Origin: Bilabrum cf. latius
Lineage: Eukaryota
Assembly (NCBI GenBank): GCA_965178125.1
Contig: OZ237741.1
Coordinates: 1,364,001 to 1,428,000, forward strand
Direction: 5' to 3'
DNA length: 64,000 nt
Made by a program: the position numbers and the translations under genes. The notes below the pieces were generated by a model that was given only the letters and a program-made list of their open reading frames with translations, made no database searches and had not been told where the DNA came from. The first letter of the stretch is position 1; every line of letters starts with the position of its first letter. Shown one piece after another: positions 18,961-64,000 of the stretch.

Positions 18961-19451
18961 TGTCCGTGTTCGGGAGGTTGTGCTCAGACCAGTCAGTGAC
19001 ATGCCTTGTTGAATCAAATGATTTATTTGTAGGAGTGGCGAATTTGACTTGCACTGATTCATATTGTGTGGTGAAAGCATCCACCAGGGTCGGTGCGCGC
19101 CTCACAGCGGGTAATGCAATGCCATGGGCACACTCGCCGTCGACATCGCAAGCGAGAGGTCGGCGGCCCGAGCGAAAAATATTTCGACTAAACAGGTCCG
19201 AAGACCTGGATCACTAGTCGAAGTGATCTAAACGTTAAAACAAACTACAATCGAAGCCAAAAAGGCAACGAAAGGGTTATTTACCAATGGTTGGTAGTTT
19301 TGTATTCATTGCTGCGATGTATGAATGCTGTTTTACCAAATCACAGCTTGAAAAGCCTGCCACGTCAATTTTGAATTGCTTCTCAATCTCCTTTACCACG
19401 GCAACTGAGCAGTAACATAGCTGCCAATAACAACAATAATATAGAAATCAA

Positions 19452-33295: not shown

Positions 33296-35972
33296 TCACT
33301 GCCGCTGGGCCGCCGCCTCCACCAATCGATCCATTCGCTCCAGTAGCCCCGCAAGGCCATTCGTCGGGACTACCCTCTCTCTTAGTCCACAGTGCTCGTC
33401 ATCTCGCCAGTGCAAAGGTTTCTTCGCGCGAAGGGCTGCTGCTGCATCGGGCGACTCGCCGGGCAAGGTACCACGCTGAGAAGGTAGAAGCAAGGCGGGG
33501 CAAGGAGCGGAATAGAAACGCGGAAACTGGTGCAAAACCATTTTGGGTTTGTATTACGGGCCAGACTTTTGGGTCGAAACATCGACTCACCCAGTTGGGG
33601 GAGGCGCGCAGCGCTGCAGCCCGGGCCCCGAGCGAGGCGTCCAGCAGGGACGCGATCTGCTCGCGGTGGGGGTGCGCTGGCTGTGGCTGTGCCAAGAGGT
33701 GGTGGTATACGGTGGATCCATCGCACTGCGGGGTCTTAAGGCGGACATAACCAGGAACATGGGCTCATACGCACAGTGTAGGCAGCAGCACATCGGGCGG
33801 TGGTGACCCTTACCAGAGTGGCGAGGGCGGGGTCAGCCCCGCACGCAAGCAGGGCTTGCACCGCCGACACGTTCAACTGATCGACGGCTGCATGTAAAGG
33901 CCGCATGCCATCTAGCAGACGCACTGTGTTTGGCCTTGCTCCCGCCCGGCAGAGGGTGGACACAGCCTGGGACACGTCCTCCTCCGGAGAGCACCGACTC
34001 ACCACGGTCAGCAGCCTAGAGTCAGATACGGCCCCGGCGTTCAGAGAGATGGCGCCAGAGAGGGACTGCTGTATGCGCCTATAGACGGCCACCCCGGTGA
34101 TGGCTACTTTGCCCACTTGTTGGTGCAGGGTCTCGAAACGGTCGGGGCACAGCACCGGCACGGCGGGGTGCCGCCCGATCACCTGGTCCAGGCCCTGGAC
34201 GTCTGTCCTCGCCACGGCACCCTCGAGGTCGTCCATGGTGCTGGAGGCGGCTGCAGCCAGTGCAGACTGCAGGCAGTCCACCATGTCTGCATTCTCCCTC
34301 TGCCTGGCGTAGTCAAGGCCAGTCATGCCGGAGCGATCCCTCGAGTCGGGCTGGGCCCCCGCATTCAGCAAGAACCTGACCATGGACTGGTCCCCATTGA
34401 TTGCTGCGTAGTGAAGTGCAGACAAGCCGCGCTTATCGCTAATATCCGTAGCTTCCTTCTTGCTCTTTGAGGCTGGTGTGGTGGCATGGCTCCCATCTGC
34501 ACTCCCCCGGGCTGCATGCCCTGCATCGGCAACCAGCACGGATGATGCCGCCTCTAGGACAAGCTCAGCGCACGACACAGCCCCATGCTGCGCGCAGATA
34601 TGCAGGGGGGCACTCGCTGCATGGAAGACACGGCAAGCGGATCTGCCCCCGCTGCAAGCAGCACCTGCACCGAGTCCCGGCTCCCCGCCGCGCACGCCAG
34701 GTGCAGAGGCGTCATCCCGTCCATGCCGCTAGGCAGAGAAGCGGCCGCTGCGCTGTCCTCGGACATGGCCAGCAGCTCCTTGACGGTCGCGGAGCTGCCT
34801 CTCAGGGCGGCTGCGTGCAGGCTGCTGTCCCCGCCCAAACACTCGTGCCTCCTCAGCACGGCCCCGGGCATTGAGTGCTCCTCGGTGAAGCCCGCCGTGA
34901 GGGAGGCAGGCCACTGCTGGAGGGCCCCGGCTCTTCCAATCGCGCGCTGGGCCGTGGCGATAATGCGGAGGGACTCGGCGCTGCCGGCGGCCGCCGCCGC
35001 AAGGACTGCCGAGGCACCGCCGCCGCCTGGCGCCCCCTGCACGTCGGTGCTGGCCGTGCAGTCCGCGCCATACAGCTTCATCTGCTCTGAGATGCGCTCT
35101 GCGTCCGGATCGCTTGTCACAACGAGACGGACCAGATCTCTGGCTCTCCTGTGGAAGAGCTGCAGCATGCACTGGTCCACCGCACCAACTACACTGGGCG
35201 GGCTAGCCTCACGCAGCTATGCCAGCTCATCTGCCCCGGAGAAGTCAGCAGCTCCAGAGTTTACCAGCAGCTAGAACGCTGTAGGCATCCCGGCACTGAC
35301 TGCCATGGCCATTGGTGTGTTGTTCTCGGCGTCGCGGCCATCAACGGCAGCTCCTGCGGCTAGCAAAATGCGCATACAGTCGATCGAGCCGCTCTCAGCA
35401 GCGTAGTGCATTGGGGACCGCCTTAGTGAATCCAAGACATCTGGTTGTAGCGCGTGGTTTTCTTGAAGCATCTACATCGCCTGTACGTTGCCGTAGAGAC
35501 ATGCGACGTGGGTCAGCGTCCTAGAGTCTTCAGAGATGCAGTGCGATATCTTTCTTGGCGGACCAAGAGCAGCCTGCAAGCCAGTAATACGACGCACTGG
35601 ACCCCTTAATTGACACGTGCGGAGAATCAATGTTCGAATTCTGGCGCGTGCCACCTTTTCCGATGCCAGCAGCAGCTCCTCTACTTCGCGATGGCCAGCG
35701 GAGTGAGCTATCTGACTGCAGAGCTGTACCCGGCCGTCCGTATCGACAACTTTGTGCAAAGGATTTGCTGCTGCACCATGGAGCAGCACTATGCACGCTT
35801 CTAGGTCCCCCTCGTGAGCACACTGTGCAAGTATGGTCCATTGCGCGTCTGCTGCAACGCCCGCTGTAAATGCCTCCAGTTCAACGTCTTGCCCGGGCTG
35901 TAGCTTCAAACCAGTTTCGCCCAATGTAATTGTTCCCAATGCTTCGCGCGGGGTATCCTCAGACGATTCCAT
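33296..35972 (-). CDS. Ankyrin-repeat protein
   Basis: Many ANK units (SPMHYAAESG, TPMAMAVSAG, SSLHAAALRG, TPLHLACAAG, SALHYAAING, RPLHAAVDQL). Three in-frame TAGs (35472, 35271, one near 35220). Introns at 33726-33813 and 33476-33590. One apparent frameshift at 34605-34610. Ends TGA. Confidence 0.8.
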
Positions 35973-36116
35973 GCAGTACTGAATGGATGTGGCAAATTGC
36001 TCGAAACTCGTGCTCCGCTCCGAGCATGGGCAGTGTGATGAAGGCAACGACTCTGCAGAGACAGTGCACAGTGTGTGAAAGCTGCCTGCCTGCCATGTTT
36101 GCCTTCATATAGCAAC

Positions 36117-39100
36117 TCAAGAGGCTCCAATTTTGAGGCCTGCACAAGCCAACTCCACCAATTGAGCTGCCTCCGGTGTACTCGCACTCTTCAGGCACTC
36201 CACAGCTGCCTCGCGCACCTAGGGTGAGGGCGGCTGCGGGCCACCCCCCGGGCTGCTCCTTGTCACATCCCGCATTGGTGTCCCAGCGGCGATGGCCCCA
36301 ATCAATCGCAGCGGGGCGAACTCCCACCCCTTGTCCCCTTGACCTCCATCACCATCCGCCTCTTCCTCTCCCAGCGCCGAGGCAGCGGCAGACGCAACTG
36401 CGAGCCTTGCCCTCGCTGCAGTCGCGCTGGCCCCTCCTTTTTCGCTTGCCTCTGATTGTGCCCGTGCCTATGCCTCGCTTGCTTCTTCCACCTCCTTGCG
36501 AGCCTCTGCGCCTACATTCACAGGCCGAGACAGCGCCTCCCAGCCCCCGGGCACTGTCGCCATCTACTCTAACGAGGCGATAGCACGCAGCTGCAGGCCA
36601 GGCGCACCGCTGGCCAGCAGCTCGGTCATAGCAGGCACGCCCCCGCCCTCGAGCAAACGAGCCGCGGCCTCCTCGTCACACGAAGCAGCTGTCGCCAAGG
36701 CACCCGCCGCCGCCTCTGCAGTCTTGAGGTCGGCCCCGTCCCACCCACTTTCGCTGTCGTGCGGCACTCTGGCGTGGGCTTGTGCTGTCGACGGTGATGA
36801 TGACCCGCTGCTGCCCGCCCCAGATGCAGGCCCTTTATCCCCCTCCCCTTGCCCAATCGAAGCTTGGGGGTCCGTCTCTCCGAATGCCTTGGCCATGGCC
36901 AGCCACAGCTTGAGGTACTGCCCGGTGACCGCCTCGATCACTGCCGGGTGGAAGGACATGTTGCACAGCGCCTCGGTGCCCGCCCGCCTCAGCAGCCGGT
37001 GGTCCTCGAAGACGAGGGCCTGTAGCGCCGATACCCCGCCGCTGCCCACGACCCTCTCGGTCGCATCCTCGCCCATGGAAGACACGTTGGTCAGCGCCAC
37101 CGCCGCCTCGAATTGCTGCATCCCGTCCCTGCCCCGGCACACGAACAGCAGGGGAGGCACTGCATCCATGACCTGGCTCTCGGGAAGCAGGTTCGGGTTG
37201 CAGGCCATCAGCAGCAGCGCGAGGCAGTGCGATGCCGCCTGCCTCCCCGCCAGCGAGTTGCCGGACAGCTCCGACGACAGCGTGTTGAGCAGGGGCAGCG
37301 CCCCCGACTGCAGCAGCTCGGCCCTGCTCCAGCGCCCCCGGACCGCCACCTTCTCCAGCACGGTGGAGATGGCCTGCAGCACGCCCGCCCCTGGCCCCCG
37401 GTTCCTCTCCTCCTGCTGCCTCCTCAAGTGCTCGTCTGCCTCGCTCAGCGGCTGCCACTGAGAGCGCGCCAGCCCAAAGAGCGGGTTCACTGCGCCGCTG
37501 TCCCGGACTGCTTGGATAGACCCGCCCTGCGCCCCCCTGCCCAGCGACTCCATAGCCAGCGAGTGGATGCCCCTCGCCGCCTGCGCCAGCGCGTGCAGCA
37601 TGGGGATCACCTTGAAGGAGATAGACGCGTGCTCGGCAGCAGACCCATCCACCCTTGCCCCGATGCCGAGGAGGAGTCTCACTCTGCGATCGACCTCATC
37701 CTTCGGGTCCGGGTCAGGGGCAGCGGCCTGCTGCGACAGCGTCAGTCGCTGGAACTCTTCCCACTGCTTGACCGAGATGTCTTTGTCTGCCAGTGCCTGC
37801 AGCCTCTCTTCCTCTTCGCTCCTCACGATGGACAGCACGATGAAGCACGCGCCCAGCGCGATGGGTCCCCACTCCTGCTCCAGCGCCCCCGATGTGGCAT
37901 GGCTCCGCCCGGCAGAACCCCCCTCGCTGGTCTCGTGCTGGGACCGGAGGGCCCGGGACTGCTCCTCGGCTGCCCTGCTCGCCAGTCGCAGCACGGCCCC
38001 GATCGTGTGGGGGTCCTCCACGATCCGCTTTTTGATGGGCACCTTGTTGCTGATGCACGCCAGAGCCTCCATGCTGCGAGAGGCCGTCCGGAGAGCAACA
38101 CGGCTGCCAGTCGAACGCGCCAGCTTGCTACTGTCCTCCTCCCTGGTGCTGCCCGCTCCACTGCTGGGCGCGGCACTAGAGCCGGACCCCGAGTCCGCCA
38201 GAGCATCATCGGCAAGCACGAGGGCATCAGCCACGCCCTCGTACAGTTCCATGATCGCGCGGTCGTCTGCTTCCTTCATGGCTGCTTCCCTGGAAGCTCG
38301 CCGGGAAGACGATCCAGCAGACGAGGCGGCCGCTCCCGCGGCGGACAATCCCGAGCCCTTGCCCCCTCCCTCCTCCGCCTCTTCCGCTGCCTTGGCCTCC
38401 TCGCCAGTCATCGGCTTGGCCAGGTCCACGCCTGCGCCAGCGGGACCTGCCGCTGCCTTGCGCTGGGCCGCTGCGGTGGCCAAAGTCTTGGCGATTGACA
38501 CTGCCGCCGCTGCTCGTACCCCCGAGTGCTCCGACTTGGCCAGCACCCCCAGCATGTCGTACACCTCGGCAGACATGAGGGCGCGGCCCGCATCGTCCGC
38601 GCACATGTGTCCAATTACGTCTGCCACGACCTCCTTCCAGGCATCGCTCGGGCTGAGGGCCAGGGAACACACGGCGGGCAGCACGCCGGTCTCCTCGAGC
38701 ATCGACAGTGCGGCCTGCCTGTCAACCAAAAAGGCTGCGCCGATGACCACGGCAGCCCGCGCGCACAGATCGTAGCGCTCCTCGGGGGCGCGCATCTTGG
38801 CAATTCTCCACGCCTGCTCCTGGACCCGAGCTCGCCTCTCCTCCTCTGCCTGCTCGCGCTTGGCCTTGTCCTACTGGTGCAACTGCAGCGCTTCGGCGGG
38901 GGAGCGAGGCACCACTTCGCCGCCTGCTGCCCCACCCGCAGCCCCATCTGTCTTGCTCTCTGCCTCGGCGGCTGCTTCTGTAAGCCCCCCTGATGCTGTG
39001 TCCTCCCCTCGCCCCAGCTCCACGACCAGACCCTTCATGTGAGCCCGCAGTGCAGCCGCCAGGTCCTTGGACGCAATCTGTGCATTGGGGTCGTGCCTCT

Positions 39101-40817
39101 CAAGCATCCTGCGCCCGCGCACGCTGTCCACGTCAGAGGCGTCCGGCAGCTGCTGCGGCTGCTACTGGCCCGTCTTGCCATCTGCCCGTCCGCCATCGCT
39201 CGACCGCAGCTTTGCGACAGCCCTCGCCACGTCAGCCCTCGACCGTGCCAGCAGCAGTGGCATGTAATCATCCGGCAGCTCCCGCGTCCTGCTGCGCCGC
39301 TCGACGATCCTGGCCAGTGCTGAACGGGCCGCCAGTCGCACGTCCTCGGTCTGACCGCTGGCCGCATGCCGCACCACCGCCCGCACCAGACCGTACTGCT
39401 CGCAGGCATCGGCCCCCATCCTAGTGCATGCGATCCTGCCGACGGCGCGGAGGGCAGCCACAAATACGTGGTCCAGCTCCAAGACATCCCTATCTTTCTC
39501 TACCTTGCCCTCTGACACAGGCACTGGCACTGGCACCATCCCCACGGATCGACTCAGGACTTCGTCCGCAGCGGCGGCCGCTCGCCGCAGTACCGCCCCC
39601 ACCGTCTCTAGCCCGATACTTCCGCCCGCCGCCGACTCTGCCTTGGACGCACCACCGCGCCCAGCCCCCCTGCTGGCCATCCGCAGCGCCTCTGCCCTAT
39701 GCTTGAGCAAAAGGGCCTGCCCCTACTACGCGGCCTCGCTCAGCAGCGTGACCCTGCTGCTCTCGTGGTCTCGAGCCGCCCACGAGCAGCCCGGCGGCAG
39801 CTGCCAGGCCTTCCCAGTGTGACTAGCCTCAGGCGTGCTGGCTCCGCCGCTGGCTCCCGATGAGGCAGAGGAGGAAGCCGCTGGCCTCGCCTCCCACACG
39901 GCAGACCCGAGGGGCCCAGCCAGAGCCTCCACCACGGACTGGGCGGACGGGTCACCACTGCGGAGGGCCTGGGCTAGCACGCCCACGCATGGTGCAGGGA
40001 CGACTGGCCTCGAGAATCTTCCTTTGTATGCTCCCTTGCCTGCTGCAGGGGGCAGTTTTGAGCTGTCCAGGGCAGCCTCGGCATCGGCAGGAGCGGTCGC
40101 AAAGGTGCCGAGCGGCTTGGGTGCGGCCGGGGCTGTATCCAGCAAGCGCCGCCCCCCGTCTGCAGACGCAAACTCGGAACAAGCGATTTCAGGCTGGGTG
40201 CGCAGCAAATGCACAAGCATGCTGAGGCCCTCCTGCCCGTCCTTGGCGCTTGGTGCCGTCCCCACAAAGCCCTTCTGTACCAGCTCAAGGGCGCCCTTCA
40301 CGCTAACCTTTGAAGCCACGCTTCGAGACTAGTCGTATACCTACTTTGCTAAGGCTGCAAGCTCTGTATTCCCGGGGTTCTCTTTGGCTAGCTGTCCCGC
40401 CTCAACAGTAGCATCGTGCATCTTGCCTAGCCCGACCAGTGCCTGCAGCGTGTGGAATAATTCGGACGATCAGATCATGTGAGCTAGTAAATCAAAGTCA
40501 ACGTGTTCGAATACGATCTGCTGCTGCTAAGTCAATGTAAACCTCACTTGAACTCGCCTGAAGCGAGCTTTTAATCTGGATGGATCGACCAAGAGTACAA
40601 GGTCGCAGTCCTCAATGCAAGATTCATGTTTACCGGCTCGGAGGTACGCTGCTGCTCTGTTTAGACGAATTGATAGCTCCAGCTCGAGCACATCATCGGC
40701 ACTACCATCGCTATTGGTACAAATCTCCAAAGCCTTGGAGTAGTGCAATACGGCATTGCTTGCATCTCCTGCTCTAAAGCGCTCGTCGCCAGCCTTTTTC
40801 TCGATGGCAGCACTCAT
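36117..40817 (-). CDS. UNC45: UNC-45-like TPR + armadillo (UCS) myosin co-chaperone
   Basis: N-terminal TPRs ('KKAGDERFRAGD..AVLHYSKAL', 'LNRAAAYL', 'KARFRR') and UCS motifs 'QQFEAAVALTNVSS' and 'FEDHRLLRRAGTEALCNM'. Intron at 40443-40547. About 9 in-frame TAGs join the same-frame ORFs. Ends TGA. Confidence 0.8.
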
Positions 40818-40985
40818 CCAGATAAATTTCAATCAGATACTGTAGCCAAATCTTGTCAATCTTTGACTGCAGCTTTCTTTTAACAGCAACGATGTGGGTC
40901 CTGCAGTCAATGTGTGACGACTGCCACTCAGTGACGAGGAATTTTGGCAGGGGAGCGATGCACAGCACATAGTGAACATGCTTGG

Positions 40986-42287
40986 ATGAAAGTTGGAAAG
41001 GTCGCAGTGAGATCCTGGCGCTTGAGTAGCGCTAAGCTGCCCAGAGACTGGGCTAGGGCATTGGCTGCAACCGTCGGCTCAGAGACTGCTAGAAACCATA
41101 CTATTGGCCATCGTGACACAGCATGCGGGTCAGTTGGTCACTACGGTATAGATATTGATGAGATACATTCGACACAAGATGCTGCCGTGGTATTCGCGCG
41201 TCGGGTGGGAGCGGTAGAGTCGCACGGAGCTGTCATATCAGCTCGCCGATAGACAGCAGGCCGCGGGAGAGGCAAGCATGAATGGCATAGTCCACTTGGT
41301 TGCTACATGAGCTCAATGTGTGTCCGTGTTCCAAGCACCAGCGTTGCATCGTTGCCGATCGTGCAGCACTTGGCGGCGATCGCATCGTGCCGGGCAGCCC
41401 AGCAGCTCGCTCAAATGCAGTCCGAGCGCGCCGGCGGCCGATCACTTGACGTCCGAATCAAATGGCCAAATGACATATACGCATGCCCCATTGATCACAG
41501 TGAGGCTTCCACTGCTGCAAGCAGCGCGAGCAGCAGCAGCTCGCTGCCCGCGCCCAGGTCGTCGTACAGCAAGGTGGGCGGCATCCTGTGCACCACGGAG
41601 CTGGTGCACGACCTTCCTGTACCTGCACAAGGCAGCACGAGCGGCGCGGGCAGTGCGGTCTCGCCGCGAGGCGCGCGCTCTGGCTCTTCGTCCTACGTTG
41701 TGGTGGTGGGGCTCGGGCTGAACGTGTGGGGCACCAGCCCATTCGAGTCCTTGCGATCGCTGGCTTTCAGAGACGATGCAAGGGTCTGTGCATTGGAGGA
41801 TAGGGGAGGAGAGGCATCAGGTGGAGCGGGGGAAGAAGTGGCGAGGGGATAGACGGCAGGGGAAGACGAATTTAGATACGAAACAGGAGGGGAGCTGCTG
41901 CACAGCGAACTGAGAGAGCTGCTCTCGATTGAGTGGGGCCGGGTCTGGGATCAGTTCATGCCACCGGGGGGCGGTGGAGAAATGGCGGGTGTGCTGCCAA
42001 CGAGGGAATACGAGTCTTTGTGGCTGCATTCGGGCCAAGAGGTGGCAGCCTGCGCCCCGGAGGACGTGCCTGCTGCGGGCGAGCCGGAGGACCCCGAGGC
42101 GGCTTCCAGCAAAGGGTCGGCTACCAGCGGCTCCATGCTACGAATGAGAGTGGAAGGCGTTAGTCCTACGGGTGGGTTGATGGCCACATGCATGGAGGGC
42201 ATGCAGAAGGGGACGACCTGGGAGCTGACAGCACACGGGCACTCGTTTGACCTGATGAAAGGACTTGTAAGGCGGCGAGTGACATGA
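40986..42287 (+). CDS. BPL1: Biotin--protein ligase (holocarboxylase synthetase/BirA catalytic domain)
   Basis: 'IHSTQD', 'ARR*TAGRGRGKHEWHSPLG', 'IKWPNDIY', 'KVGGIL', 'VVGLGLNV', C-terminal 'GHSFDLMKGLV'. TAGs at 41250 and 41850. Ends TGA. Confidence 0.9.
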
Positions 42288-42432
42288 GAGGGTGCAGCAG
42301 CTTATAGCTAGAAGCTCACGGTTCGGTTTGCGAGGGGCTGCCTGTTCAGCCTGTGATGAGCGGTCGCAAATGCACACCACAGCATTGCGTTGGTCTGCGG
42401 GGTCGTGCCTGCTACGTCAATCTAGTTTGTTC

Positions 42433-43543
42433 ATGGCAACTACTGCATCTACTGATACATGGAGTAGCAAGTGGAGACAACTGGCTTCGTTTGAGAGTTA
42501 GGTTGAGTTAGGCATCCGCAAGACCTAGAGGACGATACAAAAGATTCTTCCAGTAAGCGCTATGCACGAATGGTGCCATCAGTATATCAGAATGCTGCAG
42601 GCACTCTTTTCTATTCAGTTCAGTCTTGCATTCGCAGACAGGGCTGGCAGCAGATTTGAATTCTGGCCGTGCCCGAACACACTTTCAGCACCGCGACGGA
42701 ATCAGAGATGAATTGTCAGTCATTTATGGCACACGAGATACACAACACGATCCATTGGCAATTGCTGAGCGTTTTCGAAGCTGCAGAGAAGCTTTGGGGG
42801 AGCACTACACGGAGATACTAGCCAAGTTGCGCGACGAGGAAACAGAGCTCGCGAAGTTTGCCCCACTAGACTAGACCCGTCCCGCTGATGCTATAAAATA
42901 TAGTGTAAGGAAATTAGATTAGAGCACGGGTCAAGTGGCTGCCACTCTGGACCCCTCACCAATAAAAGTCGATCATGACCGAGCACAACCTGCTGTGCCA
43001 ACCGCGGCCGAGGCCCCCACAAGGGAACGGAAAGGCCCAGCAAAATTCTCTGCAAGCTCTCGTCTGGAAACCAAGGAGTTTGGATTGCGAGCTGCCCTCA
43101 AGCGGATCAGCGGGGTACGCTGGCGCGCCAGGGACCGAGCCTGCTGGCCTGCAGCTCTCGAGGCTGCCGCAGCTGTACGGGTCTCCAGGCAGCAGCACCA
43201 GCCCCTGGCCCACTGGATCACAGGCATGCTTCAAAAAGGGTAGAGCTTTGCAGTGGGCGACTCATCCCGCCGACACGGAGAGACTGGCGGCGGGCACCAC
43301 CCGATCGCGGTGCAGTGGACTGCCGAGGACCGTGACATCGTCCACACCCAGGTGCTGGCCGTGCTGCGCCAGAACCTGCAGGTTCCGGTTGCATCCTCTG
43401 CAGAATCCCCAGAGGAGCCCCTCTCCTTGCCCTCGCTGGCATCCTAGCTGGGGGCCTCTCTCTGCGTGCAGCTGCCTGCCTCTCTCCTCGTGGGACTGGC
43501 TGGCGCTGGCACTGGCAGTTGTGTCACAAGTGGCGGGGAGGGC

Positions 43544-43601
<58 letters not shown>

Positions 43602-44677
43602 GCGAGGGCAAGGTCGCGGTGCCGGGCCATGCCGAGCGCTCTGTTCGCCTCGCTGCTGCCCTCCTGCGCATGGACACCTGGCATGCGATGCGGCTGGCAG
43701 CCTCAATCCAGCGCAGGGTCGTTCACCACAGCACCGACGCCGTGTTGGCCGAGCTGCTCTGCCTCGGTTTGCAGATGGCGGCTGACGCCCTGTCTGGTCT
43801 CTGCTCTGCCACGGCACGCGCACGAACCCTTGCCGAGCGGAGACAGGCGGCGGCACTCCGAGCTGCGCAGGACGAGACCAGTGAAGGAGCAGCCAACAGC
43901 GGCCCGCAGGCGGCCGTGCGTGCCCCGTCCCCAGGCGAACGCAAGCGGAGGGCGCGCACCACTGCCAAGCTGGCGGTGTGGCGAGCGTAGAAGGAGCAGG
44001 CACAGGCCAGTCGGGAAGCTGAGGCTAAAGAGTAGGCCGCTCACCGCAGGGCGCACTCGCGAGCCAGAATCGAGGCTCGCCGCCAGGCATTCAAGCAAGC
44101 TCTGCAGAGCGCTGGGCGAGATCCGAAGCAGACTACGGTTGCCAGCAGATCTGGCGCAAGGGTGCTGCCAAAGACCGGTCCTCCTCCCAGCGCCGAGGAA
44201 CTTGCAGCCAGGCAAAAGGCTGCTCTGGAAACAGCCCGCAAGCGCAGAGCCACTCTTTAGGCACGGCACGCTCGCCAAGAAGCCGCACGGCTCGCAAGCC
44301 GAGGCCTTGTGGCACGCGTATCATGCCCTCCTGCCCCTGGCGAGGATAGCAGCACAGCGGCTGGGCACTCTGAGAATATGCCCTCACTCTCCTCTCCTAT
44401 CAAGGTGGTCGCCAGAGCCCCCAAGGCGGTGGTACAAGCCAAACGGTCTCGAGGCCGGGTGCTTAGAGCCACGGCCTCTCGCAAGACTGCAGCTGTGACC
44501 ACTACGGAGCTGAGGGATCGTCTTCGTGCGCTCAGCTAGGCTGCCACGCACGACCGGCAGATCGCATCCAGCGCAGGCTCACTCATGTCGGAGCGCGCTG
44601 CATTCGGTGTGGGCGGCAGGATCGACTTTGCCCGGGGTCCTGGCTCCAGGCGGGGCACAGCCTCCTGGATGCTGTGA
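42433..44677 (+). CDS. Coiled-coil protein, weakly CCDC112-like
   Basis: Exon 42433-42552, intron to 42636, then one frame with TAGs only (about 10 in total) to TGA at 44675-44677. The charged helical C-terminal half and 'RSRGRVLRAT...RRGTASWM' ending only loosely recall CCDC112. Confidence 0.5.
43538..43609. repeat. (GAGGGC)n microsatellite encoding (GE)n
   Basis: About 11 copies seen directly. Confidence 0.9.
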
Positions 44678-44737: not shown

Positions 44738-46147
44738 TCACACTCCAGCACCAGATGCAGCAGGCCCACCGCTGGAGTGGGCAACAGGCAAACCACCAGG
44801 CTCGGCTGCACCTTTCGATGGAGGATCCCGCGAACACTCAGCCTCGTACCCAACCGCACCCGATCCAGAGACATACCGCACGGTAGACGCTCTGCCGGTC
44901 ACCCCAGGACCAGCACCAGCCCCATCGCCAGCGCGTGCACCCCCGGATCCGATGCCTCCGAACCTGCAGCTTACCCGGTACTCCCTGGCCTTGATCAACT
45001 ATCGGATGCGGGGGAACAGCCCAAGCGCTGTCTTGGTGGTGGCAGCCGCCACCTCCTCCACGCCAATGCCCTTGATCGCTGCGAGTCCGGCCAGCGCGAT
45101 GGACGTGTTTTCGGGGGCATTCGTCTCTTTGCCATCTGTCGGGTGCAGCGCTGGACTGTCTGTCTCGAGGCACAGGGCATCCATTGGCAGCAGTCGCGCC
45201 ATCTTTTGCAGGCACCTATCTCTGCCCAGGCAGGCCGCCACGGAGAACTTGAGGCCCAGGGACGCGCCCCTCACTGCGTGCTTGGCTTTGCCGTCGAATG
45301 CGTGCAGCAGGGCACGACACTTGGGTGCGGGGTGTGGGGTTGTTGTGTCTGTCCCACCATGACTGGCAGTGGCAGCGGGTGCCTTGCTCTCTACCCTGGG
45401 GTCCTGCAGGAGCATGTCGATGGCGTAGTGGCCTGCCTGCCGGCTGTGTACGTTGACAGCTAGGCCGGCACTCACGGCGTGATCTATCTAGGCTGAGAAG
45501 ACCCGTGCTTGATTGCTCTTGACCTCCACTGCATCCACTCTGGACCGAGCTGGACCAAGGGAAGGCACGCAGGTTGCAGCCTGCATTGAGCCACGTGCGG
45601 GCTGGTCCGCAAGCTCGCCAGTTCCAGTTGCTGATTTGGCGGTGCTAGTAGTCTATATGGCGCACTTCAACGTTCGCGGGCAGTAGTCCAGCCCGCACTC
45701 GCCGACGCCAACCACCATTTCAGCGTGCAGCTGCAGCATACCCATGACCTCGTCCAGTTCGGCAGCCGTAGGGTGTGTCCAGCCCGGTTGTACTGGGTGC
45801 AATCCAATGCATGGCGCCATTATACTCCACTCAATAGGATCGTTCGCGGACAAAACGCCCCCAGGCTTGCGCTCGGCAGCGAAGTCTGGTGCAGCCGCGT
45901 CCAAGGAGGCATCGACTGTCGACTTTGAGGGTACACACCAAGCCTTCTACTGTACATCTGCCCGACCAAAAAGTTCAACTGCTTGCTTTGCATTTTCGAC
46001 AACAGCTACGAGCGCACCAACGCTGTGGGCTGCAGCAGAAGAAAGACTGACGTCCCAATCCCCCATGGCTGGATCCACAAGGTGGCAGTGCGAGTCAATG
46101 ATTGTACTTGAATCCCATACCCACGGCTCCTTTTGTACTCTTGCCAT
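44738..46147 (-). CDS. TatD-family deoxyribonuclease (TATDN3-like)
   Basis: 'IDSHCHL', 'CIGLHP', 'VGVGECGLDY', 'NQARVFSA*I', 'VNVHSR', 'LLHAFDG', 'LCLETDSP'. TAGs at 45947, 45653, 45488 and 44999. First TGA at 44738. Confidence 0.88.
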
Positions 46148-46318
46148 GCCGCCAGAGCTCTTGGCGCGGCGCGAGCCCGACTGCCCCTCTTCGTTCTGGG
46201 CACACCGTGTGACAGTTGCACTTTGGGCGCACCGCGGCACTGCAGTGCTGTCTAGCAAACAATTACTCGGCAAAAACAGCAACATTCCCAGGCACCGAAT
46301 CATGCTATCGTCTTGAAT

Positions 46319-48859
46319 ATGGCATTTAGATTCAATTATTTGTAGCGTAGGCAAGCATTGTGCCTGCATAAGCTACGGTGGATCTCATGCAGTGCCTCGA
46401 ACTATCGAGCGAACAAGAAGCCTATTCTACCTAAGAAGCCCTCTTTGAAGGACTCTTTGGTGCACGCATCGTTGGCTAGCCTCCGCACAGACTACGAAAA
46501 AGCAGTTGCCCGCGCTACCGCTCCTACGGATGCCACCTCGGCAAAAGCAGGCTCCTCACAGCTGCTGGAGCGAGCAGATGGAGCCGAGACGCCTGCGTCC
46601 GGCAGCGATACTCCGAAATCTACAGCAGTAGACTCGAGAAAGCTTTTGTCAAGAGGGTCAATGGTTGATAGATAGAGACGAGGTGGTGGCAGATCTCTGG
46701 ATTTCACGGCAATTGACCCGATGCACGTCCCGAAACCCAAGTCGTATTTGAAGACTCACTCAGACAAGATTATGGACTATGAGGAAGAGTCCCCTTTGCC
46801 TGAAATGCACGAAGCGGATGAGTAGGGGCCTGATAGCCCGATGCATGTGATTCGCTCGTATGTCGTGGATGCTGTGTCGGACGACGAGGCGGGCTACGAC
46901 ACCACCGTGGGGGACGAGACCGACCTGGATTTTAGCTCCGACGATGCACTTGTTGATCCTGAGAGCGGGTACCACGAGGGAGGGGCCCTCTCGCACCAGG
47001 CGGGATAGAGCAGCAAGGGTGCAGCAGGAGGCACGCGAGCCCCCGACTCCACAGCCAAGGCGTTCTACGAGATGCGAAAGGCGCAGCGGGAGGCGGCCAT
47101 GGCTCGGCTGGAGAGGAGCGTCAGGGATGGGCCCCGCTCCTAGCTGCTGATTGACGAGCGCGTGGAGGGCAACGAGGACGAGCAGGCAGGCGGCTCTGGA
47201 GCAGGGGCTCGCGCTCGCAGGGGCCGCTCCCTCTGGTCCGCGAATCGGCGCAGCGCCGCGGAGGTGCAGCTCCGGTGGCTTCCCTTCGACGTGAAGCGCA
47301 GGCGGAGCAAGCGACTAGTGCCCCTCGGGGCCGTCAGACCGCCGCGGTACCTGGGCAGGGGGCGCGGCATGCAGCAGTTCCAGGCCAGGGTGGCCAGGGT
47401 GTTCCCTGAGGTGCTGCAGCGGGCAGCCAGGGGGATGGCGAGGCGCAGGGAGGAGCAGGGTGAGAGGGAGGCGGGCAGGCGGGCGGCAGTGGGGGCAGAT
47501 GCAGCGGCGCTGGTGGCGCCTGGCCAGGCTCAGCTGGAGACTGGGACCGATCTCGTGGATGGGGGTGGGACCGGCCTGGCGGACTCTGGGCTGCAGCGGG
47601 TCGGAAGCGGGAGCGGGTCTGCTGATGCCTTGGAAGACATCTTCAGCACGCCCGATGAGCTGGCTGCGTCTACCGCCCGGCAGCTGCAGGTGCCAAGCAG
47701 CATGGCCCTGTCTGCCTCTCAGCGGCAGGGGGCCCTCATGGGTGCACTGGCGCACCCGTCCATCCTGCCTCCGCCTCCAGACGGCCGGTCCAGGGTGCGT
47801 GCGTCTGACGTGGCCAGGCAGCTGACCGTGGTGGCCCCTCAGTGGGTGGGGATCACGCCGGCCAACCAGCAGGAGGTGATGGACATGATGCCGGTGACGA
47901 TCCCGGACCCCCCTCGCGAGGACATGGATTGGGTGTGGCTGCCAGAGGTCAGGTCGGCGGTGCTCATGCCCATGGACGGGTGGAGCACGTACAAGGGCTG
48001 GGCGGTGCAGACGGGCATGTCAACGTTCCACGCGGTAGTGTGCCCCAGCGGAGAGCATCCCGCGAGACACATGCTCGGGCTGGACCTTAGAGTGATCCAC
48101 GGGGTGGCCTCGCATCCGTTCCACGACGGGGGCCCGGCTGCCTTCGCGGAGCACATGGTGGGCCACTTCATGCGGGAGCTCGAGACGGGGGCCAGCATCG
48201 GATCCACCGCACCAGAGGGCCACAAGGAGGATATTGATGCGCTGAGGGCCATGGCGCTCTAGGACAGTCCGGCGGGCAACGCGGTGGACGCAGTGGACTC
48301 GTGGTCGCACTCTCCCGTGGAGGGCGTCACGGCCTACGGTCTTGAATTCGTCTGCAGGCGACCCCTCGGCCGGGCTCGCAAGCGTATGAAGGGCGACTTA
48401 AACCCAAGCTTCGTGCGGGCCAGCGGTGAATTGGTGCAGCTGACTCTCGATGGGGGCAACGGGAGTGGGTCTGGCGATGGTGCCCTGGACGATGACGCCA
48501 TCGCGGGGCTCTCCGCGGAGGAGATCTTGCGCATGGACGAGTTCACGCGACCCACGGAGGATGCACTCGAGACCGCATTCCAGCAGGTGGCTCGCGAGCA
48601 GGACCGGGCCGACAGGGATGCAAAGGCGTACGGCTTCAACGAGTCCAACGAGGACCGTGCCGCTCGGATGGCTGTGCTGCAGGCTGGTCTCAGGGTCAGC
48701 TTGACTGTGACGGTGAACGAAGTGAATGACTTGGCCTCGGTGGTTGCGTTCAGCGCCCCAACCGGTGTCTGGGTGGACGCCTGGGAGCAACACGGCCGGG
48801 ACATGGTGGATCACTGCTACGTCAACTGGGCCGACCTGTCGCCGGACAAGTTCGAGTGA
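46319..48859 (+). CDS. Hypothetical protein with Arg-rich, acid-free N-terminus (possible mitochondrial targeting)
   Basis: ORFs 46358, 47162 and 48284 are in one frame, joined by about 6 TAGs. Begins MAFRFNYL*RRQALCLHKLRWISCS. Ends TGA. Confidence 0.55.
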
Positions 48860-48934: not shown

Positions 48935-50560
<1,626 letters not shown>

Positions 50561-51141: not shown

Positions 51142-54100
51142 ATGGTGACCGTCAAGGCGAAAGCAGTGGCAGTCCGAGGGATTTTCCTCGTAACGGTAGT
51201 TGCGATCGTGTTAGCCGCACCCATCGCACGGGCCTAGATCAGCGAGCTTTCGTGCTCCGCTACATTCGAAGATCTTGCGGTACCGACCATTGGGAGCGAA
51301 GTTGAGGTTCGTTGCCCCGGAGAGTGCCCCGCGGCCGAAGCGGATACCCTGGGTGGGTGTGGCCCTGTCTACAGCCAGGGTCCCGTTTGCTCCGGAGCTG
51401 CCCTCCAACTGTTTGGAAGCGCGTTCATGCGCCTTCGAAGATCATTTTTAATCCGCCGAGTTGACTTGTCAGGGCAGCTGGAAGGCTGCACAGCGCACAG
51501 TGTGCAGAGCTCCTCGGACACTTCACCATCTCAGGCGTTTGAGATCGTGGACGTCGAACGAAGTAAGCAAGGTTGTCAGATAAAATCGTAATTCCGTTTT
51601 ATTCGGCCTTGGATCGCCTAAAGCGCGGTTCACTGACAAAAGCCAAACCCGCGAATTCGCATGGATATTGATCGCGTTCTTGCTCTATCTTGGGGACTCT
51701 ACATTCCATCCCTTACTGTCGACTTCGCAGTCACGATTTTGAACTGTGATGCACGTATGAATCAGACCGAGCTTAGTTCCAGCAACCCAGCCGGATCGAG
51801 CCAGGCCTACGTGTGTCCCGCTAGCTGCCCGGCGAGCATCACCCCCGTGGTAGAGGGCTGCAGCACCTACTCGGATCGATCCTCTGTGTGCGCCGCTGCG
51901 GCGCATGATTTTGGTGGATTTGGCAGCTCGGGCGCTTTCGTGGCCACCACGCGGGCTGGACTCCCGTCCTACGGGGGTTAGTGCTCGAGGAACGGCGTAT
52001 CACCTCAGGAGGGCATTGCCAGTGCCCTAGCCTTTGAGCTGGACAACGCGTGGACGCTGCCTGCGCGCGTACCGTCCGTGGACGTGCAACGCATCTCGGG
52101 AGAGGAGAGCAAGGTCCGTGTGAGCGCCCGAGTGCCCTCCTCGGGTGCAGCCGTGTCCTACATGCAGATCGAGGCCGAGCCCCTCTGCTTCCAGGACGAA
52201 TTCGAGGGGGCCACAGCCGACTTACAGGACAGGCACTGGACCTGGCACGCCCCGGCATGCCAGACAAACGCGCAGACATCCGGCAGCCGCTGTTTTCATT
52301 CCACCTCGCGCGCCTCGGGGGTGCTCACCATCAAGGCGGGGCCGGGGCTGCAAGTCTACCACAACGACGACTTCGCACGACGCCGAGGCAACGCACCCAT
52401 GCTCAAGAGACCGGAGGCATTTGAGCACTGGCACGACTGGAGCGTGGAGACGTACATCGATCCGACTAGTGGCAACGACGGTGGGCGGGTGGTGTCCAAC
52501 ATATGGGGCGGCATCATGATCCTGGACGCCGAGAGGAACGACGCACCCATCATCACATGCTTCATCGCGGTCTGGAGGAACAACGGCATCCGCGCGTGTA
52601 GGATCATGAATTCCCAAGCATCGTCTATCGCCACCGGTCCCGTCCCTACGAATCGCCGAGGATGGATCCGTATATACTATAGCGCTGCCGCCCAGCGCTT
52701 CTCCTTCCAGTCTAAGGCTTCCATTAACGCGGACTGGGCCGAGTTTGGGACCCGTAATGCCGAATCTGCTGGTAACAACGGGCGTATCAACCGGTATCGT
52801 CCGGCGCTGTTCGTGAGAAACTGGAACGGGGGCACTCTTGCCTCTGCTAACACCGTGTACGTGCGCTTCGACCATTTCAGGACCCATGTGGCAGGTGCGT
52901 GTGGGGAAGAAGGCGTCAAGAATACGCTTGTGCACGTCCTGCCCGTCCCCCCTGGCACCCAGCCTGGCGCTTTGCTGCAGATGGACGTAACTGCCCCCGA
53001 GCGGGTACCCCACACATACCGAGTGGCAGCAGTGGGCGAGGTGGGCGTGGCAGGGCCGCTGTCCGAGATACCCACTGCTGGTGATGCGCCTAGCCGCCAG
53101 ATTGGCTTTCCCCTCAGCTAGGCCGCCATTTCGAACCGAGGCCTCCGGTTTTGGTGGGACTTCACGAGGTTCAGGGGCCGCCTTACGGACGGTATCGGCA
53201 GCCCTGGTCTTCGACGGATTCAAAACGAGTTTGGCACCACGCACGCCTACCAAGGCGACCCAAACCGACGGCCAAAGCTGCGTACGGGGCTGCTCGGGCC
53301 CAACGCGGGCATCGTGACCACGAGTAGCGCGCAATTTCTCATCTCTGCACATCAGGACAACACCGTCATCAACGGACCCAGGAATACGTTCTTTTTGATT
53401 GCTCGGTTCCGCAACCCAGGGGCCTGGACATGGATCTTTTCCAAAGGGAACGGAGCGGGTGCTGGTGACCAGGCGTACGGAGCCCTTCTCGGGGCGGGAT
53501 AGCATTACGCGTTCAGGTTCTCCGGGAGGAGGGCTCCTCAGTACGGGCTAACCTCCAATGACGGAACCATCCGCCAAACGTCTTTCTCCAACAATCAGAT
53601 GGTGGCTCTCATCGAGTACAGGACCGATTATTCGTTCTGCATCCACTGCCGCTCAATGTGGATGCGTCTAAACGAGCGCGGTGCGAGCATTGCTGACGGA
53701 TTTGGTGCATCCCCCATCTTTCCTGGCGGCCCACGCAACAGCTACAAAGCCATGCAGCACATCAGCGGGCCCATGTCACCCGCTGGACGATTCTTCAACG
53801 TGCAGCCGACCAACACGGACCCGTTCCATTTCCTCGCCAATGAAGCGGGGCAGGCCACGCCCCAGGCCGAGGTGCTCGAGTTCATTCACTTTAAGGGCGG
53901 GAACGCAAACGTGTGGGGGGCGGATTACACTGCAATGAAGCAGTACTTTGACGACAAATACGGGCGTCCTTCCCGCTGCAGCGTCCCAGAGCTGATGCTG
54001 GCGAGCAACTGGTCCTCACATGCGTCCTGGTCCGACTGCAGCTCGCGCACCAACCCTGAAGGTGGGTAGCGATGCCCGATGCGCTGCGTTCGCGAAGATC

Positions 54101-57100
54101 ACACCATCATCGCAGGTACTCCCGACGCTTTGCGCTGCGAATTCGGGGGCTGGATGGGGTCCATGCCGTTCTGTGGCCCAACCTGCCCGGCCCTGTCGAG
54201 AGGCCAGTCGAACGCAGCTACATGCACCGAGGACCTGTGGCACGATGATTTCGTCCTTCACTTTAGGCAAGGGGCTACCAATCCGGCTGCCATCGCTGCA
54301 CGCGGTGCGGCTGCCTTCGAGGGGTACCGCGTACTCCCCCACATGCCAGACGATTTCCGCAGGCAGCTGGCTACCCTCGGTTCTGATGCCAACGAGACGG
54401 AGCCGCACCATCGGGAGTTTCTTGAGCTGAACGGAGCTCAGAGAGTCGCGCAGCATGGCCTCAAGGAACTTGCCGAAGACGTGATCTTGACCCCGTTGTA
54501 GCCGCAGTACACCGGTCGCACCACGGGAACTGAGCCCATCCGTGTAGAGGCCGAGATGCGAGTGGTGAGCGGGCACGGGGGTGTGGTGTGGCACTTACAG
54601 GACGGGGGTTTCTCGGACGAGATGCTGGCGGGCAGCTACTAGAACTACTACCGATTCAAGTTCTCGTCTGCTGCGCGCTCTGGGCTTGCCGTGCACTCGA
54701 TCGAGAGGGTGAGCAGACCCACGCAGCGGGACAGGTTTCCTACAACTCGCGTGCTGGCCTCCACCTCGGGGGTCCTGGACAATCCGGGTGGCTGGCACCA
54801 TGTGCAGGTGATTTTGTCTTACGGCATGGCCGAGTCCGGGGGTCCGGGTTCGATCCGCATGGAGGCCTTCATCGACGGGAGGCACATCCTGACCGCTGAC
54901 GAGGGGCCGGCAGCCAACCCGCTCCCGTCCACTGCAAGCACAGGCGTAGCTGCCAGCCAGGGCAACGTGAGAGTGCGCTCCTTCACGGTGGCAAGGGAGT
55001 GCCCCGAGGGGGGCATCATCAACGACGCCCCGCGAGGAGAGAGGGTCCGCATGAGCTGCGCGCCCGGCTTTTCCGGTGTGGGCTCCGCCGCGCGAACTTG
55101 CAATGTGTACGGTGAGTGGACAGGAGAGCCGTTTGTGTGCCGGACGGATCCACCCGTGTTCGGCAACACCACCCGATACGTGGACGAGCACAGTCCTGTT
55201 GAAACGCTGGTTGGCCCGCCGCTCGAGGCACGGTCGCCCCTTCCCGTGACGTACGAGCTGTTCGAGCCTGGCAATGACAACGCGTTCGGGATCGATCCGT
55301 GCACCGGTCAGATCTACGTGCGGAACAACGTGCTTGACTTCGAGCGGACGCCCTCGTACCGGCTCCGGATCTTGGCAAAGGCGAATAATGACGCCTTTGC
55401 CGTGAGCGAAGGCTTCGTGACGGTGCGGCTGAACAACATCAACGACCCTCCAAGGTTTCCCGGGGGGTAGACGCTGGTGCTAGAGGAGAACGCACCGGCT
55501 GGCACCTTGTCCAACTAGGCAGTGGTTGCGACAGACGATGAGGGCAGCCCCCTGCTATTCAACGTGACCGTAGTGGGTTCCCTTGGCTCTGACGCCGCCC
55601 TCGGGCCTCTACTGGGAATGCAGCGAGTGAACGATACCGCCGCCCAGCTGCAGGTGCTCCGAGAAGACGCGCTAGGTCTGCTGGACTTCGAGTCGAGGGA
55701 GACGATCCTTCTCATTGTGCGAGCTTACGACGCCCAGGACCACTCTTTGTTCAGCGATGGACTTGTCACGCTCTATCTGCTCGATGGTGCCGATCCGCCG
55801 AGGATCTTGCCGTCCCAGTTTATCACGATCGACGAGGACACCCTGCAGGCGGGGCCCTTCCCGCTGGCTCTGTCTACCGCGGTGCAGGTATACGATGAAG
55901 ACGCGCAGAGCTCCGGGGGCACCTCTGGCTCAGGTACTAACACGACATCCGGTGGAGCTGGCGGTCAGACTGTGGGAAGCGTGCGCCTGTTCTTTGACCA
56001 GGGCACTGCCGCTGCTTCCACGTTTGGTGGGTTGTACACCGATGGAACCACCAGGCTGCAAGGCCCGTCGGTCTTCAGTCTCAACAGCTCCTCCTACCTC
56101 ATCTCGTTCACGCAAGCACCGGTGATCAGCAGCAATGACGAGGTCTTAGTCCGCGACGACAGCACGGACACCACGTACATCGCCCGCGGGGCCTACAACC
56201 TCCAGCTGCGTGCCAGGGACGGGGACGGTTTGGACTCCAGCCCGCGCAATATCACGGTGCTTGTGACGGTAAACACGACGGGTGTGGGCGGTGCGTCGGT
56301 GGATCGCGTTGACGCAGATGGGCCCGAAGGCTTGCTGGCGACGGATGGCTCGAGCACTATCGTGATCAGCGGCGTGGGCTTGGAGAGCATAACTGGGTCC
56401 ATCGCCGTGGCGTATGGTCCGTACACAGCCACGAGCTGCGCCACCGTGCGAGAAGCCGTGCCTGATTCCGAGGACATTGTCTCGATCCAGTGCCAGTCGG
56501 TGCCAGGCCACGGAAAGGATCACCGCCTGCACATCGTGGCGGAGGGCCGGGTACTCCGTGCCCCCTCGCTGCTGCTGCTGAGCTACCAGCCCCCTGCCCT
56601 GGATGGTGTGACCGGCGTCAGGGCGAACGACACGCTGGGCGTGGGCGGGCTGGATGTGTCCCGGTTGCTTACCGCGGGTGGACAGGCTGTCTTCTTGCAA
56701 GGCTCGGGATTTTCCAGCAACTCCACTGCTGTTCGTGCCTTTTATGGCCCGCAGAACCCAGCCTGGATCGATCCAGAAGGTGACGAGGTCGATCGAGAGG
56801 ACGAGTCGTTCGACGCCACGGACCCAGTCCAGAACCCCAGGTACCTCTACGAAACGCTCGAGGCAGACATCGTGTCGGTGTCTGACACCGAGATTGCCGT
56901 GCGCACCGCTGCCGGGATTGGAACCAATCTTGGCTGGAAGGTAGTTGTGGATGGTCAGGTGGCGTACGGCTCCGAGCAGGCTGAAGTCGGCTACGGGTTA
57001 GCTATCGTAACGAGTCTTGAGCCTACCTCGAATCTGGCAGCCTCTCGCTTTGAGCTGCCGACGCGCGGAAGTGCCGGAGTCTCTAGTCGCCGCCTCAATG

Positions 57101-63100: not shown

Positions 63101-64000
63101 GACCCCTCCAGATGGCCGCCTGTACCTCCAGGTTGTGTTCGAGCCGTGCAGCAAGCCCGGCGGGGTGCATCGCACGCTTCTTGGCCCCGCCATTATCACC
63201 ATGCTGGTGTACGGCTTGGGGTTCCCCGCGATCGTGTTCTACGTGCTGTACACCAACCATGACCTCATCATGGAGGACCAGCTGCTGCGTGCCATGAGGA
63301 TGGGCGAGGACACTGTGACAAACCCTCACGCGCACACGATTCGCAGGAGGTACTCTAAGATGTACTTCGCATTCAAGCCCATCGGTTACCGCATCTACTG
63401 GATGCTGGCGCTGATTGCTCGCAAGTTCTTCTTCGCGCTGACGTCACTGCTGTTCGTGCGCAACGCGGTGATGCAGCTGTCCATGTCTCTCCTCGTGATG
63501 TTCGCCGCCTTCGCGGCTCAGACGAGGTTCCACCCTTTCATGTCACCGGACGAGATGGAGGACACGCTTAGGCAGCACAAGCGGCTGTCATTCGACCCCA
63601 GCTCGCCCCACTCCAAGCTGGCAGCAACCATCAAGTCGGTGGTGCAGAAGGGCAGGAAGCGGGCCACGTACGGACAGGGCTTCCAGAGGCTGACCGAGTC
63701 ACCCAACCTGCTCGTGCAGTTCGGTGGCACAGTGATGGGGGCCGCCATTAACTACAACACCATCGAGTCCGTGCTGCTAGGATCTGCCGTGCTGGTCAAC
63801 CTGAGCGGCATTATGTTCAGCTCGGGCCAGCTTAACACGGACGAGACGGGTGAGTACTATGCTGGGTACAGGGACACTCTCATCGCGCTGACTCTGGTGA
63901 TTATTTTCGGCACACTGATCTACTTCTTTGCGGTGTTTGCGTACGACATCTACACGCTCTGTGCGTCGGCCCAGGAGGCAGAGGCAGGGGCCGGGAAGAG
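51142..64000 (+). CDS. Giant (>4100 aa) cell-surface multi-pass protein: signal peptide, 2 LCCL, lectin/LamG-like regions, Sushi/CCP, cadherin-like, many IPT/TIG-like repeats, Cys-rich region, multiple TM helices; 3'-truncated by window edge
   Basis: Exon 1 51142-51562 (hydrophobic signal ending ARA), intron 51563-51730, exon 2 51731-62994, intron 62995-63095. LCCL 'GCSTYSDRSSVCAAAAH'; Sushi 'CAPGF...RTCNVYGEWTGEPFVC'; cadherin 'FGIDPCTGQIYV..LDFE...NINDPPRF'; repeated 'GG..V.I.G.NFG'; TM segments from about 62520. Twenty in-frame TAGs and no TAA or TGA. Confidence 0.85.

Follow-up and report, generated by a model that had tools for sequence, protein, structure and literature searches.

TAG at a near-invariant glutamine column of a biotin protein ligase gene in GC-rich eukaryotic DNA

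The biotin protein ligase gene and its in-frame TAG

We analyzed a 64,000-nt stretch of DNA (GenBank assembly GCA_965178125.1, Bilabrum cf. latius; contig OZ237741.1, positions 1,364,001 to 1,428,000 of the forward strand), hereafter called the window, which has 62.6% G+C and contains no N. The element under study is a biotin protein ligase gene that carries TAG in frame at a column where its protein family carries Gln. The open reading frame (ORF) starts with ATG at 40986 and ends with TGA at 42285-42287, and the encoded protein consists of a catalytic domain and then a small C-terminal domain, with low-complexity insertions present. The features of the gene are given below in window positions (L001 is a metagenome contig described in the next section; pLDDT is the predicted local distance difference test score of the structure model).

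40986..42287, plus strand: biotin protein ligase gene, 433 codons and TGA, with two in-frame TAGs (PF03099)
41250..41252, plus strand: in-frame TAG, codon 89, at a near-invariant Gln column just 5' of GRGR
41259..41270, plus strand: GRGR, biotin/ATP-binding loop, residues 92-95 (placed by homologue columns)
41460..41474, plus strand: KWPND motif with the catalytic lysine, residues 159-163 (placed by homologue columns)
41850..41852, plus strand: second in-frame TAG, codon 289, in a variable low-complexity insertion (region of pLDDT <50, not conserved in L001)
42285..42287, plus strand: terminator TGA (the L001 orthologue ends at the same position, also with TGA)

Nucleotides 41241-41300 read GCT CGC CGA TAG ACA GCA GGC CGC GGG AGA GGC AAG CAT GAA TGG CAT AGT CCA, which is translated to A-R-R-stop-T-A-G-R-G-R-G-K-H-E-W-H-S-P. 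An earlier reading of the same letters (the first-pass annotation) had given A-R-R-*-T-A-G-R-G-R followed by W-H-S-P, and its codon-by-codon reading was confirmed. The annotation had further held that termination at this codon would remove the catalytic core, and this is indeed the case: 88 residues would be left, and GRGR, KWPND and the C-terminal domain would be lost.

The ligase matches the Pfam BPL_LplA_LipB profile (PF03099) with 63.7 bits (cut-off 21; E = 2.1e-17) over residues 95-218 of a 447-aa reading. The NCBIfam biotin-protein ligase (equivalog) models also match, all with scores under their cut-offs, as expected for a divergent eukaryotic ligase. The AlphaFold model of the read-through protein, made with a 67-row alignment, has a mean pLDDT of 79.3, a predicted template-modelling score (pTM) of 0.82 and 214 residues with a pLDDT of at least 90; it is weak at the N-terminus and in the low-complexity insertions (pLDDT <50 at 266-283). 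When the model was compared with the PDB by Foldseek, the 50 best matches listed were all biotin protein ligases (E = 1.3e-10), the C-terminal domain being included in the match, with template-modelling scores of 0.76-0.78 as normalized to the 235-residue Pyrococcus horikoshii enzyme. The family features found in the protein thus comprise the PF03099 match, the GRGR...W-x-S-P loop, KWPND, and the catalytic fold with its C-terminal beta domain. We concluded that the read-through protein is predicted by the model to fold as a complete biotin protein ligase.

Contigs of four runs (X1, X5, X6, and X7) were compared with the window. The DNA-type contig X1 is collinear with the window over 36000-43529, keeps both introns found in this region and has the TAG. 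The X5 contigs are without 42553-42637, and both X5 and X7 contigs are without the 105 nt of 40443-40547, which are bounded by GT..AG when read on the minus strand. Because two GT..AG introns are missing from them, the X5 and X7 contigs look like spliced transcripts; the 42552>42638 joint is found in none of the contigs of the DNA run X1. X5 record 10 (41030-42552 joined to 42638-43529) and X6 record 16 (40994-41618) span the TAG with no differing letter, and the ligase therefore does not look untranscribed, a case which the first-pass annotation had raised as a possible objection.

The unaltered TAG in X1, X5, and X6 argues against an assembly error and against UAG to CAG editing. It would still be conceivable that the ligase is a pseudogene or a nonsense allele, that the TAG arose through a sequencing error, or that RNA editing turns it into CAG: with standard decoding, the ligase is truncated after 88 residues, and a public gene call of a relative is cut at the same place (P0001, see below). 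We regard this explanation as extremely unlikely, since the rest of the frame is open, the catalytic motifs are kept and the model folds well. In addition, 86 TAGs lie in frame in 17 ORFs of the window, the TAG is retained in an orthologue with 53% identity, and the X1, X5, and X6 contigs all have TAG and no other letter at this place.

Conservation of the glutamine column and the residue encoded by TAG

A HMMER search of 1.84 billion representative proteins (E <= 0.001) gave 1725 matches, and the best 150 of these were re-aligned locally to a query with X at both TAGs; the column counts given below refer to these 150 homologues. The query of the re-alignment was blind to the residue at TAG. 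The collecting query had Q at that single position of 433, from which we expect a negligible bias. Five of the 150 homologues are fragments that fall short of the codon-89 column. Among the other 145, the column holds Q in 143, H in one (P0059) and a gap in one (P0113), and there is no R, K, E, S, or L. The first-pass annotation had described the motif Gln as near-invariant and had asked whether the column might be something other than Gln in homologues; the column as read is Gln in 143 of 145, in agreement with that description. The top solved-structure sequence match, 6jhu, has Q (a-e-Q-T-A-G-R-G) opposite the X residue as well. The family therefore carries Gln three residues before GRGR, where the codon in the window is TAG, and the window protein has this Gln only if UAG is read as Gln. 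We take the conserved Gln to be a residue that touches biotin, as in BirA.

The codon-89 column ties tenth in conservation among the 88 columns that are covered by at least 100 homologues, and those ranking just above it are G94, R95, W100, G105, and K-W-P-N-D. Within the loop, G92 is found in 142/145, R or K at R93 in 135/145, and G94 and R95 in 145/145 each; K, W, P, N, and D of KWPND are present in 143/144 each. At G92-R95, W100, S102, P103, and K159-D163 the window ligase agrees with the family throughout, the respective columns being 93-100% conserved in 144-145 homologues. Only two of the 88 columns are at least 90% Gln, namely columns 89 and 127. At column 127, where Q is found in 136/146 and N in 9/146, the window codon is CAG.

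A metagenome scan with a two-row alignment yielded two contigs, L001 (8168 nt, 53% G+C) and L002 (5130 nt). L001 has the same gene order as the window (5' part of the UNC45-like gene, ligase, next ORF, TatD, 908-residue ORF), with protein identities of 34-58%. Its ligase orthologue is 53% identical to the window ligase and occupies the frame 1035-2528, which ends with TGA and contains five in-frame TAGs. One of them lies at the codon-89 column, where L001 reads ATT TAG GAC TCC GGG CGT GGT CGA, that is I-TAG-D-S-G-R-G-R (context ISAGI-TAG-DSGRGRG). Another lies at column 127, opposite CAG in the window. A third, in LHSG-TAG-EV, corresponds to CAA in the window (LHSG-Q-EV) and to Q in the relative P0072, and the remaining two are at variable columns. 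TAG is thus present at one of the two columns with at least 90% Gln in the window gene and at both of them in L001, which, judged from the alignments, is more than chance. Residues 98, 107, and 109 of the window ligase lie near the biotin loop (41277-41279, 41304-41306, and 41310-41312, respectively); the L001 ligase has H98 and S109 as in the window, but F at 107.

The closest relatives of the window proteins (40-90% identity) are all environmental sequences. P0001, a 121-residue environmental gene call, is 90% identical to ligase residues 1-88 and ends with ...GAVVSARR, exactly 5' of the TAG codon. Further fragments of relatives' ligases are P0106/P0166, P0014, and P0072. The public gene calls of the clade (P0001, P0106, P0165, P0014, P0072, and P0184) are fragments that start or end at TAG. 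The nearest named ligases are those of chlorophytes, Symbiodinium (HCS2), and Ustilaginomycotina, with 33-47% identity. The nearest named glutathione reductases, with ~50% identity, are mixed (diatoms, Vitrella, a haptophyte, fungi, animals, and proteobacteria), and a database search with the Tub domain gave no named match.

The window and L001 orthologues could be aligned at 29 TAG sites. The partner residue is Q at seven of these sites, R at five, S at four, A, K, L, and T at two each, and D, V, E, N, and H at one each; one site is a TAG-TAG pair. Q makes up 2.8% of the aligned residues as background, and of 48 real CAG/CAA codons in L001, 13 have Q as their partner. When the 29 sites were scored with BLOSUM62 conditional probabilities, Q was the maximum-likelihood residue, followed by R (-2.5), K (-5.9), E (-8.8), and S (-9.1) in natural-log units. 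The TatD-family gene has a TAG in F-S-A-TAG-I-D-H-A that is opposite Q in all three solved structures that cover the site (2y1h, 2gzx, and 6l25). Recoding of the pyrrolysine or selenocysteine type was not retained as an explanation, since 86 sites are too many for it and TAG stands opposite Gln codons.

If UAG specified a residue other than Gln, such as Arg, Lys, Glu, Ser, or Leu, the frequent R and S partners would be accounted for, and R is 2.5 log units below Q on these sites. The meanings of UAG reported elsewhere in eukaryotes are Leu, Glu, and Ser, among which Leu and Ser have been published (PMC5304391; PMC11687900). For the window we consider such a meaning highly improbable. The residues R, K, E, S, and L are absent from the ligase column in 145 homologues, column 127, where L001 has TAG, holds Q in 136/146 and N in 9/146, the TatD column is Q in 3/3, and TAG stands against CAG/CAA between the two species at seven sites. 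We concluded from these alignments that TAG is, by all indications, a sense codon in this clade that behaves as a Gln codon. The first-pass annotation had singled out the ligase TAG as the most diagnostic site for UAG = Gln, and that interpretation is supported by the Gln column, the orthologue TAG, the TatD site, and the orthologue sites.

TAG, TAA, and TGA in the window and the neighbouring genes

When TAG is taken as sense, the longest stop-free frames of the window rise from 793 aa to 3886, 2194, 1461, and 1450 aa, and no such gain is obtained with TAA as sense. In 17 ORFs (16,879 codons) we counted 86 in-frame TAGs and no TAA or TGA, the zeros being partly by construction since the ORFs were drawn free of TAA and TGA; the lengths of the ORFs and their homology nevertheless indicate that the zero counts are real. 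The two other frames of the same ORFs contain 104 and 105 TAG, 37 and 41 TAA, and 249 and 275 TGA, respectively. The long frames are eukaryotic genes, encoding tubulin-tyrosine-ligase (TTL) family, Tub-domain, kinase, ankyrin-repeat, TPR-UNC45-Arm, and TatD proteins, and further a glutathione reductase, a CFAP77/EF-hand protein, an aldehyde dehydrogenase and a 3878-residue LCCL-Sushi-cadherin-TIG protein. The ligase, glutathione reductase, TatD, TTL, Tub, and kinase genes, as well as others, are intact apart from TAG.

TGA ends 14/15 and 5/6 window ORFs in two lists and 3/3 complete ORFs of L001. A single ORF (33736-35172, minus strand), which appears in both of the window lists, ends in TAA; this TAA lies ~70 nt downstream of GTAAGG, which resembles a 5' splice site, and is probably intronic. 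The ankyrin-repeat gene (33736-36047, minus strand), which contains the sole TAA-ended ORF, shifts frame midway. In TGA-bounded frames of the window, TAA occurs only at the frame edges. In L001 there is no in-frame TAA in 2,478 codons, vs. 25 TAG. A-ending codons are about as common in L001 as G-ending ones (CAA 40 and CAG 38; AAA 47 and AAG 41), and since TAA is absent from its frames despite this, TAA is not a Gln codon here. As read from the frames, TAA is not a sense codon and TGA is the working stop, and no credible gene was seen to end in TAA. The first-pass annotation had read UAG as Gln; its view of TAG as a sense codon for Gln stands, with the refinement that TAA is not a sense codon.

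None of the ~20 gene ends examined in the window and L001 is a TAG. This number leaves room for rare TAG terminators, and UAG could in principle be dual, with partial Gln read-through and context-dependent termination in some genes, as in the ciliates with ambiguous codes. The base after the in-frame TAG is A in 28, C in 25, G in 21, and T in 11 cases; there is no strong bias, and the counts are neutral with regard to a context rule. A dual UAG appears very unlikely to us, given that no examined ORF ends at TAG, that TAG is about as frequent in frame (86) as out of frame (104 and 105), and that two species carry it within the catalytic core of an enzyme that is essential.

The genes and other features that surround the ligase, or were used above for comparison, are the following.

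36117..40832, minus strand: gene with TPR, UNC45-central, and Arm repeats, divergent upstream neighbour of the ligase, with nine in-frame TAGs (Pfam)
40548-40832 (exon 1), 40443-40547 (intron, GTGAGG..AG, 105 nt) and 36117-40442 (exon 2), minus strand: parts of the UNC45-like gene (joint in X5 and X7)
42553..42637, plus strand: 85-nt intron, GTAAGC..CAG, at the 5' end of the downstream gene (joint 42552>42638 in X5)
42638-44677, plus strand: exon 2 of the downstream gene, with eight in-frame TAGs
44738..46369, minus strand: TatD-family (TATDN3-like) gene, with four in-frame TAGs (PF01026, E = 1.8e-31)
48935..50482, minus strand: glutathione reductase gene, otherwise complete, with four in-frame TAGs (E = 3e-124 to human glutathione reductase)
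19088-19277, minus strand: U2 spliceosomal small nuclear RNA (snRNA) gene, full length (Rfam RF00004, 68.3 bits)

In the UNC45-like gene, the 105-nt intron, which separates the TPR exon from the main one, seems to be absent from L001, in which the two parts align to one frame (minus strand, 7280-8167 in reverse-complement coordinates). At 37715 and 37717, within this ORF, the X5 and X7 contigs drop one letter each, and their ends are loose at 37699 and 37731; the lost letters may reflect a variant or a related copy. The downstream gene contains a (GAGGGC)n hexamer array of 12.7 copies (43538-43613), which encodes a Gly-Glu run and is a break point for the contigs of every run. Two-residue runs (GA, AQ, and GM) were also seen in other ORFs. 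The aldehyde dehydrogenase is split over two frames ~170 nt apart (3450-4553 and 4726-5802, minus strand), probably by a putative intron. The 3878-residue ORF (51661-63297, plus strand) has LCCL, Sushi, cadherin, and IPT/TIG domains, a hydrophobic C-terminal part and 19 in-frame TAGs.

The U2 snRNA gene lies just downstream of the TTL-family gene, and its presence confirms the window as nuclear DNA of an organism with a spliceosome. The TTL-family ORF contains the stretch L-L-G-F-G-TAG-N-P-S-L at 22500-22560 (minus strand). TTL enzymes presumably have acidic and Asn metal-binding residues at this place, and the TTL-domain protein of the window may be catalytically altered.

A putative UAG = Gln code and its comparison with known codes and enzymes

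Taken together, the results point to a code in which UAG is read as Gln, at the ligase site and elsewhere, UGA is the stop and UAA is non-sense (the type of NCBI table 15); we give this reading a probability of about 90%. The window would then be nuclear DNA (62.6% G+C) from a flagellated, GC-rich eukaryote that has few introns and translates UAG as glutamine. The TAG at 41250-41252 would encode the Gln that precedes the GRGR loop, and the product would be a full-length and probably active (predicted) ligase. UGA would terminate translation, and UAA is excluded from the frames like a stop. The decoding agent would most likely be a tRNA-Gln(CUA), acting alongside an eRF1 that has lost its recognition of UAG. 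Such a tRNA and a UAG-blind eRF1 have been described as the mechanism in other eukaryotes with UAG = Gln. A high G+C content is a feature unlike ciliates.

Several observations weigh against this reading. Most TAG sites are on variable columns, and all four TAGs of the glutathione reductase gene are at variable or gapped columns, which are uninformative on the residue. Many orthologue partners of TAG are not Q (R 5, S 4, and others), and on those sites R is just 2.5 log units below Q. The ligase is off the family consensus at three positions, with H98 (N in 141/145), Y107 (L in 125), and S109 (F in 130). Scans of the window, L001, and L002 for tRNA genes gave none, and Rfam at its gathering threshold gave the U2 snRNA only. 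Finally, none of the listed runs is recorded as RNA, the RNA labels of those with spliced contigs are only guessed and one run is probably DNA, so that the RNA nature of these contigs rests on the two intron-less joints.

We suggest, tentatively and with more doubt than confidence, that the source is a free-living, undescribed lineage known otherwise from metagenome fragments, with a GC-rich UAG to Gln code in which UGA is the sole working terminator and UAA is unused. If this is true, it would be a variant of code 15 under a compositional bias and with a stop preference opposite to those of the published cases in which UAG alone has changed. A change of the table 15 type is already known; unusual here are the high G+C content, the TGA terminator and the fact that the change is common to at least two species at 34-58% protein identity. 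In the literature covered, which did not extend to supplements and subscription journals, we found no description of UAG = Gln in a GC-rich, non-ciliate eukaryote. The proteins of this clade will be systematically truncated at TAG in public databases (e.g., P0001, P0106, and P0184) until table 15 is applied.

Nuclear code changes are rare, and in the literature covered only Iotanema and a few ciliates are described as having changed UAG alone to Gln (PMC5304391; PMC11687900). A further independent case would be informative on the uncoupling of UAG from UAA, and on whether the capture of a stop codon needs AT pressure. In Iotanema spirale (Fornicata), UAG = Gln, UAA is not reassigned and UAA is the primary terminator (PMC5304391). 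The window shares with Iotanema that UAG alone is changed to Gln, that UAA is not sense and that the organism would be a non-ciliate eukaryote; it differs in that TGA, rather than UAA, ends every credible ORF, and in its 62.6% G+C.

The phyllopharyngean ciliates Hartmannula sinica and Trochilia petrani, and Protocruzia tuzeti, also use table 15 with UAG = Gln and prefer UAA as stop (PMC11687900). As in the window, TAG is Q and TAA and TGA are non-sense in these species, and the assignment was likewise inferred from in-frame UAG at Gln columns. The window differs from these ciliates in lacking their UAA preference and also in being long chromosomal DNA of an ordinary kind, in which GT..AG introns and a U2 snRNA gene are found. 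UAR = Gln (table 6) is used by many ciliates, Ulvophyceae, hexamitid diplomonads, Streblomastix, and Amoeboaphelidium (PMC11687900), with which the window has in common that UAG = Gln and that UGA is the sole terminator in use. Table 6 itself was ruled out for the window, TAA being missing from the frames in both species. In crAss-like and Lak phages, TAG = Gln as well (PMC9523058). The codon change is the same and TAA and TGA are likewise kept as stops; those genomes are viral, whereas the window would belong to a cellular eukaryote.

With regard to the enzyme, the window ligase can be compared with the solved ligases of Pyrococcus horikoshii (2deq), M. tuberculosis (9drn), Leishmania major (6jhu/7dbs), and E. 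coli (BirA, 2ewn). The window ligase shares with them the catalytic fold, the C-terminal domain and the motifs Q-x-x-G-R-G-R...W-x-S-P and KWPND, the first Q being encoded by TAG in the window if UAG is read as Gln. Unlike the solved ligases, the window ligase has this putative TAG Gln codon, long low-complexity insertions, and H98 in place of N.

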